Below are positions 1,035-6,219 of a DNA stretch of 6,219 nt, piece after piece (position 1 is the stretch's first letter; every line of letters starts with the position of its first letter). The notes beneath the pieces are model-generated. The model worked only from the letters and a program-made list of their open reading frames with translations, had not been told where the DNA came from and searched no databases. Source of the stretch: a virus (Duplodnaviria > Heunggongvirae > Uroviricota > Caudoviricetes); IMG/VR virus record IMGVR_UViG_2740892369_000021. One strand, 5' to 3'. The position numbers were made by a program, and so were the translations under genes.

Positions 1035-1361
1035 TCAGGGTGCAGAAGGACTAAAGATAAACGTTTTCTTCACGCCTTTACACGGCCTGTCCTTCTCAAA
1101 TCGCCATTTTGCCATCGCCTTTACAACCTGCTCATCAAACAAATGGTGCGGCTCTGAACGGATAAACTCAATTCGGGTGACAGTACCATCAGCACCAATA
1201 TCAAACTTCACATCAACCCGTCCCTTTATATAATTTGCCGCTGCATAGGCCGGATATTGTGGTAATGCCTTAACCAACTGTCGGGGCATATCTGTTTTAT
1301 GTTGCGTACAGCCCATAACCAGAGAAGACAACAAAATAATTAACGGAAGATTTCTTTTCAT
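1035..1361 (-). CDS. Lipoprotein consisting of a TonB C-terminal domain (TonB_C-like), likely phage moron
   Basis: Signal peptide with lipobox MKRNLPLIILLSSLVMGC, then PQYPAYAAANYIKGRVDVKFDIGADGTVTRIEFIRSEPHHLFDEQVVKAMAKWRF, which aligns with E. coli TonB C-terminus [55 protein letters not shown]. Start chosen at ATG 1361 (SD-like GGGAA upstream); the ORF track begins at GTG 1376 and an alternative ATG is at 1367. Confidence 0.7.
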   Translation of the reverse strand: MKRNLPLIILLSSLVMGCTQHKTDMPRQLVKALPQYPAYAAANYIKGRVDVKFDIGADGTVTRIEFIRSEPHHLFDEQVVKAMAKWRFEKDRPCKGVKKTFIFSPSAP

Positions 1362-4099: not shown

Positions 4100-4633
4100 T
4101 TATCTGTCGATTCCCCAGCACGCCAGCGCGCTCTCCTGGTCACGACGGGATACCTGACCATAACAGTTATTTGAGCGAATACGGCAGTCTCTGCCACCGT
4201 CCTTAATCCACCAGCGAATCGCTTCGCAGGCACCTTTTCGATCTCCTGCATTAATTCGTTTATAAAACGTCGACGGGAAACACTTACCTGGGCCAATGTT
4301 GTAAGGACAGAATGACGCAATACCCGCTTTCTGGGGTTCAGTCAGTGGCACTTTGATGTTTTTCTCCACCCATGCCAGCGCCTTATCACGCTCAATGGCG
4401 TTAACCTGGTCGCATTTCCCCTTCGACAGCTTCATGCCAGGAATAACAGGCTTACCATCCACCCGGGTGGCTCCACGGCAGATGGTCCAGATACCCGCAC
4501 CATCACGGTATGCCGTGGTGTGGTTGCCTTCCTTTTCATCCAGAAACTGGTCGAGGATTTCAGGCGCAGAAGCACCTGCGGCAATCAGCGCCAGAACGGC
4601 AGCCGATAAACCATAGCGGAGTTTCCTGCTCAT
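4100..4633 (-). CDS. R: SAR endolysin (T4-type lysozyme, GH24) with N-terminal signal-anchor-release domain
   Basis: N-terminal weakly hydrophobic Ala/Gly-rich segment YGLSAAVLALIAAGASA; catalytic triad spacing E-x8-D-x5-T in EKEGNHTTAYRDGAGIWT; overall likeness to phage 21 R. Starts 4 nt after the S stop. Confidence 0.9.
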   Translation of the reverse strand: MSRKLRYGLSAAVLALIAAGASAPEILDQFLDEKEGNHTTAYRDGAGIWTICRGATRVDGKPVIPGMKLSKGKCDQVNAIERDKALAWVEKNIKVPLTEPQKAGIASFCPYNIGPGKCFPSTFYKRINAGDRKGACEAIRWWIKDGGRDCRIRSNNCYGQVSRRDQESALACWGIDR

Positions 4634-4637
4634 CAGC

Positions 4638-4853
4638 TTACTCTCCCCGTGCCGCCTTACGCCTGTCCTCTCTGATTTTGAAATACAGGTTCGTCAGGTA
4701 CGTCAGCAGACCAAACAGCAGACTCCCCAGCACGCCTATTGCCGCCCACTGAGACGGGGAAACCCTGTCCAGCAACTGCAGGAACCAGTAGCCCGTTCCC
4801 ACCGCTGACGTGGTGTATGACACACCTGTTGTGATTTTTTCCATCTGGTTCAT
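4638..4853 (-). CDS. S: Class II holin / pinholin, S21 type, with dual-start motif (Met1 and Met4)
   Basis: [71 protein letters not shown] is near-identical in its C-terminal two-thirds to phage 21 S (…[51 protein letters not shown]). SD GGAGG 7 nt upstream. Confidence 0.9.
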
Positions 4854-4929: not shown

Positions 4930-5202
4930 TTACAGCATCATGACCGATTCGGGTTGAGGTTCAGTCGCATCGGCGACCGGTGATTCAGGCTGAACTTCAC
5001 CGCTCTCTGCGGTGGTATCTCCCGCTTCAGTCGGTGGCTCTGCCTGTACACCAAGCAGCTCATCCAGAATGGCATCAACCTCTGCATCAAGACGCGCCTC
5101 AAGATTCTGGCGGAGTTTTTGTTTCAGTGCGCTCAGGACTTCTTCAGAGCGCAGGACTTCCTTCACTGCCTCTGCAGTGACCAGGGATGTAATTTCTGAC
5201 AT
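4930..5202 (-). CDS. Hypothetical acidic protein, 90 aa (amphipathic helical N-half, Pro/Glu-rich C-tail)
   Basis: ATG at 5202 preferred over the ORF-track GTG at 5376 because a separate 59-aa ORF in another frame occupies 5243..5422. Sequence [51 protein letters not shown]... Weak SD. Confidence 0.45.
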
Positions 5203-5242
5203 GGGATTTTCTCGTCGAAAGGTGTGATTAAGAAAGTTGCCG

Positions 5243-5422
5243 CTAAATGAGCGGCTCTTCGGGTTTGCTTCCGGCTGACTGACTGGCGCTGATTTTCTCA
5301 GCGGCCCTTTTGTCAATCTGTCTGCGCCAGAAGTCACGCATGGCCCGGTATCCACCCGAAAGGAGATACAGCACACAGACCACCGTACAGAAGTACAGCA
5401 TTAACTGGTTCAGAAATGTCAT
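5243..5422 (-). CDS. Small membrane protein, 59 aa (N-terminal TM helix, basic then acidic tail)
   Basis: Hand-translated: MTFLNQLMLYFCTVVCVLYLLSGGYRAMRDFWRRQIDKRAAEKISASQSAGSKPEEPLI. SD-like GGAAAG upstream of ATG 5422. One residue under the apparent ORF-track size cutoff. Confidence 0.45.
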   Translation of the reverse strand: MTFLNQLMLYFCTVVCVLYLLSGGYRAMRDFWRRQIDKRAAEKISASQSAGSKPEEPLI

Positions 5423-5440
5423 AATTTCTTTCCGTTATTG

Positions 5441-5469
5441 TTGACAATAAGAACTGTTTTCATTAAAAA
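5441..5469 (+). promoter_or_regulatory. Candidate sigma70 promoter on the plus strand (-35 TTGACA 5441-5446, 17-bp spacer, -10 TAAAAA 5464-5469)
   Basis: Perfect -35 hexamer at ideal spacing; the -10 is weak and lacks the terminal T. Points away from the 59-aa ORF toward the plus-strand terminator. Confidence 0.3.
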
Positions 5470-5475
5470 ACCAGA

Positions 5476-5556
5476 GTACGAAAGTATCGTTCCTTTATTT
5501 TTTCTCCATAGGTATCACCACCGCCAGCGTCCATTCCTGTCGCTGGCGGTTTTTTT
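5476..5556 (+). ncRNA. Candidate small RNA of about 80 nt defined by the promoter and terminator pair; antisense to the region upstream of the 59-aa ORF
   Basis: No plus-strand ORF with a start codon lies between promoter and terminator. The terminator is orphan, on the strand opposite to every surrounding gene. Confidence 0.3.
5520..5556 (+). terminator. Strong intrinsic terminator on the plus strand
   Basis: ACCGCCAGCG-tccattcctgt-CGCTGGCGGT (perfect 9-10 bp GC-rich stem) followed by TTTTTTT (5550-5556). On the minus strand the same hairpin has no U-run after it. Confidence 0.65.
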
Positions 5557-5557
5557 A

Positions 5558-6219
5558 TCATGCCGCAGTGTCTGTGCTGTTCACTTCCACCACAATGCTG
5601 TCTATCAGTACCGGGTAAGTCGCATTCCTGGTAATGTCTGTCACATGCAGTTTATCCGCCGCAAATGCACTGACCGGTGACTGCGTCAGCGTGAACGGTG
5701 TGCCATCCTGACCATCAATAACCGGCGTCACCTGAAGGCTGTTATTCCCGGCAAAGCGGAAAGACAGCGTATGCCATTCGTTATCAAATGCGCCAAAGGT
5801 TCCCAGTTTCAGGTTGTTTGTCGCCACTTTCGCATTGTGGTACATCACATTCAGGTCTTTTGCATCTGTCTGGATGTAGAACGCTGCCAGCAGGTTATTC
5901 CCCCCGTCTCCGGTCAGGGCAACGCCCTGTGGCAGTGAAGATACCGGCCAGTAAAACGCCATAACATACTGGTTCGCAGCCAGCGCTCCCGAAACCTTAA
6001 AGCGGCAGCGAATCTGCCCCCCTTTCTGTAACAGAGCCGCACCGTTGCCCGCGGCGTACTCCAGCACCCAGCTGCTTTTACCGGCTTCCTTGGTCAGCTT
6101 CACTGCCTTACCTCCGGTTCCCTCCGCATCGCTGACCACTTCTGCCCTGCCGCCACTGGCTGACCATCCCTGTACTTTCAGGCTTCCCTCTGACTCGCTG
6201 GCAAGGTAAGAGAGCAGTG
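5558..6219 (-). CDS. C-terminal ~220 aa of a larger protein running off the window end; possible beta-sandwich/lectin-like domain of a cargo protein
   Basis: Minus frame is open from 6219 to the TGA at 5558-5560 (the ORF-track start at 6139 is an internal GTG). Sequence ...WHTLSFRFAGNNSLQVTPVIDGQDGTPFTLTQSPVSAF... Its position upstream of S is where Stx-type phages carry a large nanS-p-like esterase; that identity is a guess from position and composition. Confidence 0.6.
   Translation of the reverse strand, partial: LLSYLASESEGSLKVQGWSASGGRAEVVSDAEGTGGKAVKLTKEAGKSSWVLEYAAGNGAALLQKGGQIRCRFKVSGALAANQYVMAFYWPVSSLPQGVALTGDGGNNLLAAFYIQTDAKDLNVMYHNAKVATNNLKLGTFGAFDNEWHTLSFRFAGNNSLQVTPVIDGQDGTPFTLTQSPVSAFAADKLHVTDITRNATYPVLIDSIVVEVNSTDTAA

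Follow-up and report, generated by a model that had tools for sequence, protein, structure and literature searches.

The question raised by this locus is what a promoter and a terminator could be doing on the plus strand of a prophage late region, directly opposite the gene for a small membrane protein. The window, by which we mean the whole stretch of 6,219 nucleotides that was analysed (IMG/VR virus record IMGVR_UViG_2740892369_000021), has all of its credible genes on the minus strand, and together they make up the late/lysis region of a Stx-type lambdoid prophage. An initial annotation had seen in the locus an arrangement like that of a type I toxin with its antisense RNA. The observation behind it, a promoter-terminator unit opposite DUF1378, is confirmed. 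The explanation that we consider likely is a different one, namely that 5441-5556 (+) is a small RNA gene of the prophage and one allele of a polymorphic cassette between an esterase gene and DUF1378. Its product would be an unnamed, Hfq-dependent, trans-acting sRNA, a paralogue of Esr41 that sits in the slot of EcOnc33 and PasC.

Anatomy of the unit and its place in the late operon

The features that the argument needs, in window coordinates, are the following.

4100-4633, minus strand: lysozyme gene
4638-4853, minus strand: gene for an S21-type holin, after DUF826
4930..5205, minus strand: DUF826 gene (start ATG at 5205, product of 91 aa), the next late-operon gene after DUF1378 (Pfam; synteny in all loci)
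5243..5422, minus strand: DUF1378 gene, 59 aa, N-terminal TM helix and charged tail (Pfam, E 2e-39; PHROG 494; hydropathy)
5441..5446, plus strand: TTGACA, the -35 hexamer of the sRNA promoter; the start codon of DUF1378 is 18 nt away on the opposite strand (read from the sequence)
5464..5469, plus strand: -10-like hexamer TAAAAA at 17-bp spacing, without the consensus final T (read from the sequence; the element recurs in the EcOnc33 allele)
5476..5556, plus strand: predicted sRNA with a length of about 81 nt; this allele is "type 1" of the esterase-DUF1378 slot (fold, Rfam Esr41 match, model R1)
5478..5490, plus strand: 5' hairpin ACGA/UCGU (RNAfold)
5494..5512, plus strand: single-stranded U-rich stretch with the putative seed UUUUCUCCAUAGG (unpaired in the MFE structure)
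5502-5509, plus strand: seed core UUCUCCAU, invariant in alleles 1, 2, 4 and 6 and in Esr41
5511..5519, plus strand: small 3-bp hairpin GGU-AUC-ACC directly before the terminator (RNAfold)
5521..5556, plus strand: intrinsic terminator with a 9-bp GC-rich stem, an 11-nt loop and U7 (sequence, fold)
5521-5529 and 5541-5549, plus strand: terminator stem arms CCGCCAGCG and CGCTGGCGG (arm also given as CGCUGGCGG)
5550-5556, plus strand: T7 run
5558-5560, minus strand: esterase stop codon, abutting the sRNA terminator
5558..6219, minus strand: 3' part of a NanS-p-type SASA sialate O-acetylesterase gene with a DUF6645 domain (Pfam DUF6645, E 4e-75; RefSeq annotation of identical copies)

The other minus-strand genes of the window encode an Ant/KilAC protein, Rz with an embedded Rz1, Rha, a TonB_C lipoprotein and an HNH nuclease.

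The plus strand had been described as carrying a perfect -35, a 17-bp spacing to a weak -10, some 80 nt without an ORF and then a strong terminator, and all of these elements can be read directly in the window. The promoter scores 10/12 in our own consensus scan, and a standard promoter scan of the window does not list it because the -10 lacks its final T. With its 5' end at the predicted position G5476 the RNA would be about 81 nt long, and the transcribed plus-strand stretch contains no ORF of at least 30 aa. An 80-aa ORF with a TTG start (5438..5680, plus strand) was discounted, as it crosses the terminator and runs antisense to the esterase gene. A standard terminator scan reports only the inner 5-bp piece at 5537-5549, since its loop limit is 8 and the actual loop has 11 nt. 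Terminator-like matches over the whole window are at chance level (8 found, 6.2 expected), so pattern matching alone proves nothing. The predicted 81-nt RNA folds at -22.8 kcal/mol (z = -5.2), and none of 200 shuffles is as stable. The earlier assignment of the terminator to the plus strand and not to a minus-strand 3' UTR was correct: a T-run follows the hairpin on the plus strand only, while the late-operon strand has an A-run ahead of the hairpin, which is therefore not the terminator of the esterase gene. The terminator with its U7 and the U-rich internal stretch are both predicted to favour Hfq binding, and the former is the expected Hfq-binding 3' end of the RNA.

The unit is widespread in this form. 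Many genomes of O103 and other STEC contain the surrounding 421 bases with 100% identity, and this region is matched in 1014 of 5426 complete E. coli genomes. The unit alone is 99-100% identical in 933W, BP-4795, Stx2 phage I and many Stx1/Stx2 phages, as well as in prophage Sp5 of O157 Sakai (NC_002695.2 1272086-1272169, minus strand).

The membrane protein reported opposite the unit is also real. The ORF matches the DUF1378 family of Pfam end to end, its Kyte-Doolittle mean reaches 1.85 over residues 7-25, which form the one N-terminal TM segment, and its tail is charged (8 K/R, 5 D/E). A single TM segment in a small ORF is a generic trait, common to many phage membrane proteins. Pfam and PHROG both list the family as of unknown function. 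It is restricted to E. coli and Shigella prophages (226 clusters); a scan of contigs from one genome per species gave pattern matches, none of which was confirmed by tblastn. Within its range DUF1378 always lies in an esterase-DUF1378-DUF826 module, even where this module adjoins Mu-like com/mom genes.

Conservation of the frame and exchange of the body

The strongest evidence that the unit exceeds chance comes from comparing its sequence across loci. The comparison set consisted of DUF1378 plus esterase loci from IMG/VR, GenBank phages and assemblies, and included 61 distinct DUF1378 loci down to 51% protein identity. An intact unit lies between the esterase gene and DUF1378 in 59 of these 61, and the remaining two have the unit with a single promoter point mutation each. 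In the intact unit TTGAC[AT] is separated by 17-18 bp from T(T)AAAA, and 50-125 nt further on comes a GC hairpin whose T5-9 run reaches the esterase stop; this terminator has the frame ..GCC.G/C.GGC..-T5-9. The TTGAC[AT] element is kept in all alleles of the slot and also in Esr41, PasA and PasC.

What lies between promoter and terminator behaves otherwise, as the RNA body diverges or is replaced altogether, giving at least eight sequence types. In two loci (L005 and L031) DUF1378 is 99% and the 3' end of the esterase gene 95-97% identical to the window at the nucleotide level, while the RNA body is only 75% and 63% identical, respectively. Near-identical flanks around swapped bodies indicate that the promoter and terminator form a fixed frame and that the transcribed middle is a cassette. 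Identical DUF1378 alleles are found with different RNA bodies, and variants of the DUF1378 start region occur with the RNA types in all combinations. A small hairpin at the start of the RNA is common to the window allele, Esr41 and most other alleles, the exceptions being types 2 and 4, which form a different 5' structure. Type 1 itself is nearly unchanged in hundreds of phages and genomes. Among the related loci fetched, all type-1 copies retain the seed core UUCUCCAU, and differences are confined to a few flanking positions and the length of the T-run, apart from one rare variant with one mismatched pair in its terminator stem.

At the level of structure the terminator stem varies too little for covariation to be informative. 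In a nine-allele alignment of the 9-pair terminator stem the outer seven pairs are nearly invariant and 94.7% of the cells are paired, and we found no two-sided change; the stem hardly varies and MAFFT misaligns its inner part. RNAalifold on ten alleles likewise returned five invariant pairs only and no covariation. Compensatory changes that seemed visible by eye (CCGCCAGU/ACUGGCGG in L011, A-U for G-C in Esr41) came from columns out of register in MAFFT, and we do not claim them.

These data bear on the initial proposal of a hok/sok- or zor/orz-like module, in which the divergent antisense RNA would limit synthesis of a membrane toxin, DUF1378. The likeness to tisB/istR-1, zorO/orzO, shoB/ohsC and hok/sok is one of layout: a small membrane ORF (here 59 aa with one TM helix and a charged tail) adjoins a short, terminator-ended RNA gene on the opposite strand. 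The strict co-occurrence is one point in favour of this reading, as DUF1378 is never found without the unit in the 61 distinct loci, and RNA units occur in places that lack DUF1378, an asymmetry that a toxin and its antitoxin would show. Against it stands the position of DUF1378 as a gene of the late operon, between the esterase and DUF826-holin-lysozyme genes and 37 nt from DUF826. Unlike the toxin genes it has no promoter of its own that we could find; a sequence scan of 5423-5760 gave no minus-strand promoter of at least 9/12, the best being 8/12 with poor spacing. The RNA had been expected to be antisense to the leader of the membrane-protein mRNA. It is indeed perfectly antisense to 81 nt of the intercistronic late RNA just upstream of DUF1378, but its 5' end lies 54 nt upstream of the start codon and transcription proceeds away from that codon, so that the RNA never covers the ribosome-binding site or the ORF. 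When the pairing of the RNA with the DUF1378 start region or ORF was calculated, as the initial annotation had suggested, it was no better than that of shuffled RNAs, 98-99% of which pair at least as well. The free recombination of start-region types with RNA types is a further difficulty for a matched pair. DUF1378 has no match in NCBIfam, PADLOC or the PDB and resembles no known type I toxin or defence family. Finally, relatives of the window RNA are Hfq-bound trans regulators that are kept and active where DUF1378 is missing, namely Esr41 in SpLE1 and PasA/PasC in E2348/69. The classical E. coli type I antitoxins are not known to be Hfq-dependent. We therefore regard a type I toxin-antitoxin-like module as very improbable.

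Relation to Esr41, EcOnc33 and PasC

The only notable Rfam match in the window is to the Esr41 model (RF02676), at 5481-5558 on the plus strand with 28.1 bits (E 0.032). It is full length (model positions 1-74) and falls exactly on the predicted RNA, but lies far below the Rfam gathering threshold of 102 bits. Known Esr41 copies are near-uniform, 687 of 696 records being at least 99% identical, which suggests that the Rfam model is narrow; the low score thus excludes that the window RNA is Esr41 itself, not that it is a paralogue. The relation can also be approached from the other side. A covariance model (R1, alignment A3) built from ten prophage alleles, with Esr41 left out, finds the Esr41 gene (L003 2993-3063) with 23.5 bits and E 0.0016 in a 29 kb test sequence; on the window its match covers 5474-5557. 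Sensitive blastn of the window allele against Esr41 gives 48/62 identities (E 3e-6), and two alleles, one from phage PhiR12_3 (L170) and one from an E. coli assembly (L172), are sequence intermediates between the two.

Esr41 (EcOnc14) is an Hfq-binding sRNA of the EHEC O157 island SpLE1, where it has validated trans targets, and it is reported to act on haem/iron uptake (chuA, cirA, bfr), LEE and motility. Its promoter has the same TTGACA and the same 17-bp spacing, followed by TTATAT where the window has TAAAAA. Both RNAs have a common order of parts, a 5' hairpin, an unpaired UUUUCUCCAU(G/A)GG, a small hairpin, a CGCC.GC/GC.GGCG terminator and U7, and the 48 identities fall over the 3' two thirds. 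The small hairpin is GGGG-UAUU-CCCU in Esr41 where the window has GGU-AUC-ACC, the 5' third of the window RNA is unrelated to Esr41 in sequence, and the window RNA is longer (81 nt as against 72-74 nt). The seed differs at one position, with A in the window for G in Esr41. The genomic sites differ as well, Esr41 lying downstream of iha and the window RNA between the esterase gene and DUF1378; tblastn detected no traces of the esterase, DUF1378 or DUF826 near Esr41 in SpLE1. A suspected DUF1378 remnant, MTYLNLL, upstream of Esr41 was dropped, as its tblastn E of 4.4 is that of a chance match. Zhu et al. (2026) note matches to the Rfam model of Esr41 close to PasD, probably at the locus of the window RNA, which they do not describe.

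A second line of evidence is position. When reverse-complemented, the published Northern probe for EcOnc33 matches this very slot in Sakai Sp6, the spacer between ECs_1527 (NanS-p) and ECs_1528 (DUF1378), and does so on the same strand, antisense to the late genes. In five of five Hfq-CRAC data sets EcOnc33 gave a peak, among the strongest, and it ran at about 71 nt on Northern blots (Tree et al. 2014). It also appears in the RNase E-CLASH hybrid tables with mRNAs such as ECs5359. It shares with the window its -35, an A-rich -10 (T(T)AAAA(A)), a GC hairpin whose U-run directly adjoins the esterase stop, and a similar length. Its body and seed are unrelated (GUCCUGCAUGUUUUGCUUUGGAU... as against ...UUUUCUCCAUAGG), so the targets of the two should differ.

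PasC and PasA of EPEC E2348/69 are sRNAs that are stabilised by Hfq, confirmed on Northern blots and linked by RIL-seq to many partners (Pearl Mizrahi et al. 2021), and were placed between the esterase and the holin by Zhu et al. (2026). Like the window RNA, they lie between a sialate esterase gene and a holin gene, antisense to the late operon. PasC also ends at the esterase stop, with a similar terminator (GCCAGCGUCC...CGCUGGC-U7-AU). Their bodies differ from that of the window, only the PasC terminator resembling it, and their loci lack DUF1378 and DUF826; model R1 gave no match on the PasA/PasC strand of the two loci searched (L001, L002). The PasA seed has been reported to overlap the terminator stem. 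The window unit at 5441-5556, which starts beside the downstream gene and ends at the esterase stop, has the geometry common to EcOnc33 and PasC.

Other prophage sRNAs do not account for the unit. The conserved 3' region of about 42 nt of AgvB/AsxR (RF02702/RF02703) has no match anywhere in the window at E up to 1, and these RNAs are encoded elsewhere, directly after the moron CDS that lies downstream of PR' (stx2AB in Sp5). STnc100 and Sok have no Rfam match in the window. EcOnc10, EcOnc11 and EcOnc12 were considered as occupants of the slot and rejected; EcOnc11 lies downstream of Rz in Sp10, in a segment missing from the window. In the literature searched, no sRNA is named or described between nanS-p and DUF1378.

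Taken by sequence for Esr41, and by position and promoter-terminator framework for EcOnc33 and PasC, three separately described sRNAs are thereby joined, and they appear to represent a single polymorphic slot for cassettes, whose frame is fixed and whose seeds can be exchanged. Such a slot would be a compact example of how prophages diversify their host-directed regulators. If this is true, an Esr41 paralogue as yet without a name is present in the classic Stx phages 933W, Sp5 and BP-4795, a short way downstream of stx and nanS-p. What is new is this link between Esr41, EcOnc33 and PasC as one slot, together with an Esr41-like seed in major Stx phages. The kind of sRNA gene is already known, and no new class of mechanism is opened. 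In practical terms the comparison provides a simple annotation rule for such genes and a defined 81-nt candidate with a testable seed.

The window allele could have the ancestry of a real sRNA cassette and be silent or decaying, poorly or not expressed, so that only the hairpin matters, if anything. The weak -10 and the two alleles with promoter point mutations would fit this. The Sakai Sp5 copy is also missing from the 63 Hfq-CRAC sRNA candidates of Tree et al., though EcOnc33 is prominent in the same strain. In the parts of the CLASH tables searched, no reads with the window-allele sequence were found, which is weak evidence. However, EcOnc33 is driven by the same type of -10, and the type-1 sequence has changed little over hundreds of phages and genomes and retains its seed core in every copy fetched. 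We consider a silent allele quite unlikely, and infer instead that the window allele is expressed, depends on Hfq and has targets in trans.

The putative seed, a candidate target and the late operon

In the mechanism that we favour, the sigma-70 promoter, with its perfect -35 and A-rich -10, would fire in the lysogen against a silent late operon and produce an RNA of about 81 nt with the intrinsic terminator and its U7 tail at the 3' end. Its homology to Esr41 and the position that it shares with EcOnc33 and PasC suggest that this RNA binds Hfq through its terminator and U tail. The unpaired U-rich segment UUUUCUCCAUAGG would then act as an anti-Shine-Dalgarno-like seed, pairing in trans with the ribosome-binding regions of host or island mRNAs and repressing them, and the mRNA of the haem receptor, chuA, is a candidate target.

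The case for chuA starts from the core UUUUCUCCAU, which is common to the window allele and Esr41 and lies in a block, UUUUCUCCAU(G/A)GG, that is unpaired in both folds. Waters et al. introduced the Esr41-M1 mutation (GGG to CUC) in CAUUUUCUCCAUGGGG and restored control with the compensatory chuA-M1. The shared core of the window allele coincides with this validated seed, the position of which we deduced from the published mutagenic primers. The Esr41 seed is UUCUCCAUGGGG, which pairs with the ribosome-binding region of chuA, and its counterpart in the window is UUCUCCAUAGGU, a segment left unpaired by the MFE fold. The predicted duplex of the window RNA with chuA has 10 bp with one mismatch and -13.6 kcal/mol, compared to -23.2 for Esr41. 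All alleles with UUCUCCAU are predicted to pair with the same chuA site, the window allele most weakly and the others at -18.8 to -24.1 kcal/mol, and different alleles extend the match on different sides. EcOnc33, with its unrelated body, reaches only -7.9 kcal/mol at this site. These predictions hint at a common target of the UUCUCCAU alleles. Many hosts of the identical window copy are O103 and other non-O157 STEC, and such phylogroup-B1 strains presumably lack chuA, which counts against chuA as the target.

An action closer to home has also to be weighed, since the RNA is complementary over its full length to 81 nt of intercistronic late RNA and converges on late transcription. It could be a cis-antisense brake on the late operon, comparable to OOP/anti-Q or to exclusion of the STnc6030 kind. 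Its main partner would be the esterase-DUF1378 junction, and cleavage of the duplex by an enzyme such as RNase III would lower leaky DUF1378-DUF826-holin expression in lysogens or that of the late genes of a superinfecting sister phage. Several observations agree with this: none of the DUF1378 loci examined lacks the unit, the sRNA promoter occupies DNA of the DUF1378 start region, PasA forms RIL-seq chimeras with the neighbouring esterase mRNA, and prophage sRNAs acting on late mRNAs are known from a review. For such a brake any sequence would suffice, yet UUCUCCAU is kept across diverged alleles, and it is found in Esr41 as well, without an adjoining esterase gene or DUF1378. Esr41 and EcOnc33 have partners in trans, and the overlap ends 54 nt before the DUF1378 start codon. 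A mainly cis-acting brake is unlikely in our judgement, though the RNA could have some effect on the late transcript wherever the two occur together.

Both kinds of action could also be combined in a dual-purpose cassette, which would work in trans via Hfq and serve as a lysogen-expressed lock on read-through into DUF1378-DUF826-holin, with DUF1378 as a harmful membrane protein and the two forming a type-I-like pair within the late operon. This would explain why DUF1378 is never found without the unit, but we hold it to be improbable as well.

A formal parallel for action on the late operon is the OOP RNA of lambda (77 nt, with its own promoter and terminator), another short RNA that converges on a major phage operon and is complementary to an intercistronic or 3' region; its expression is constitutive. 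The two have no sequence relation, and the window RNA lies in the late region while OOP lies in the cII-O region. In contrast to OOP, the window family has a conserved seed, which points to action in trans.

Module mobility and sRNA cassettes

The gene order in three comparison loci argues that the esterase-sRNA-DUF1378-DUF826 block moves between phage types as a module, since in two E. coli assemblies (L175 and L176) and in an Stx1 phage carrying an inserted Mu-like phage (L007) it lies immediately upstream of Mu-type com/mom genes instead of a holin. In prophage PP2 of EPEC E2348/69 (L001), a further unit was located beside the Hfq-dependent sRNA PasA:

L001 ~2470-2575 (NC_011601 ~743270-743375, E2348/69 PP2), minus strand: second complete unit, between PasA and the esterase stop codon

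In this unit TTGACA and an A-rich -10 are followed, after some 68 nt, by GCCAGCG...CGCUGGC-U7, and its sequence is similar to the 3' end of PasC, another Hfq-dependent sRNA of EPEC prophages. Given a second complete unit beside PasA, PP2 seems to carry two cassettes in tandem; we found no name for the second. PasD2 of the same strain (L001 458-527, plus strand) gave a weak match to the covariance model of slot alleles (16.2 bits, E 0.059), which runs via UAUUCCUUUUAUCAUUUUCCUUGUGAG, opposite GUUCCUUUAUUUUUUCUCCAUAGG in the window allele. This match could reflect a distant relation, or merely a common U/C-rich motif of the Hfq type.

Natural variation was also seen in the promoter of the unit. 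Two IMG/VR loci with type-2 alleles (L070 and L159) have one promoter substitution each with the remaining unit intact, the substituted elements among them being a -10 of TTTAAGAAT and a -35 of TTAACT, and these loci could act as natural promoter-down variants in comparisons.

The DUF1378-DUF826 junction

The ORF list gives a 148-aa ORF with a GTG start at 4930-5376 (minus strand), which overlaps DUF1378 out of frame. Both the Pfam match to DUF826 and the related loci, in which DUF826 is called 22-40 nt past the DUF1378 stop, put the true start at the ATG at 5205 (91 aa). A hairpin lies at this junction:

5239-5255, minus strand: 6-bp GC hairpin GCCGCUCAUUUAGCGGC, spanning the DUF1378 stop codon

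The U tail behind it is only weak. The much diverged type-5 module has, on reading its sequence, another hairpin, CCCCGCUCUGAUAACGGGG, at the equivalent site across its stop codons. The hairpin over the DUF1378 stop may act in processing, in stability or in coupling between DUF1378 and DUF826.

Other sites in the window and in SpLE1

The spacer at 1511-1685, which separates Rha from the TonB_C lipoprotein gene, has 94% identity with the Sakai Sp10 stretch directly downstream of Rz, which adjoins the map position of the abundant, Hfq-bound sRNA EcOnc11; the EcOnc11 segment itself is absent from the window. The top sigma-70-like match in the window (11/12) lies antisense within the lipoprotein gene:

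1207-1234, plus strand: sigma-70-like TTCACA-16-TATAAT

An unannotated reading frame was noted near Esr41 in SpLE1 (L003):

L003 2761-2823, plus strand: 20-codon ORF (sequence reading), about 190 nt upstream of Esr41

It has a good AAGGAG ribosome-binding site and a purely hydrophobic predicted peptide, MPVRLVSIIFPILLALFLLA, and its product may be a small membrane peptide beside Esr41.
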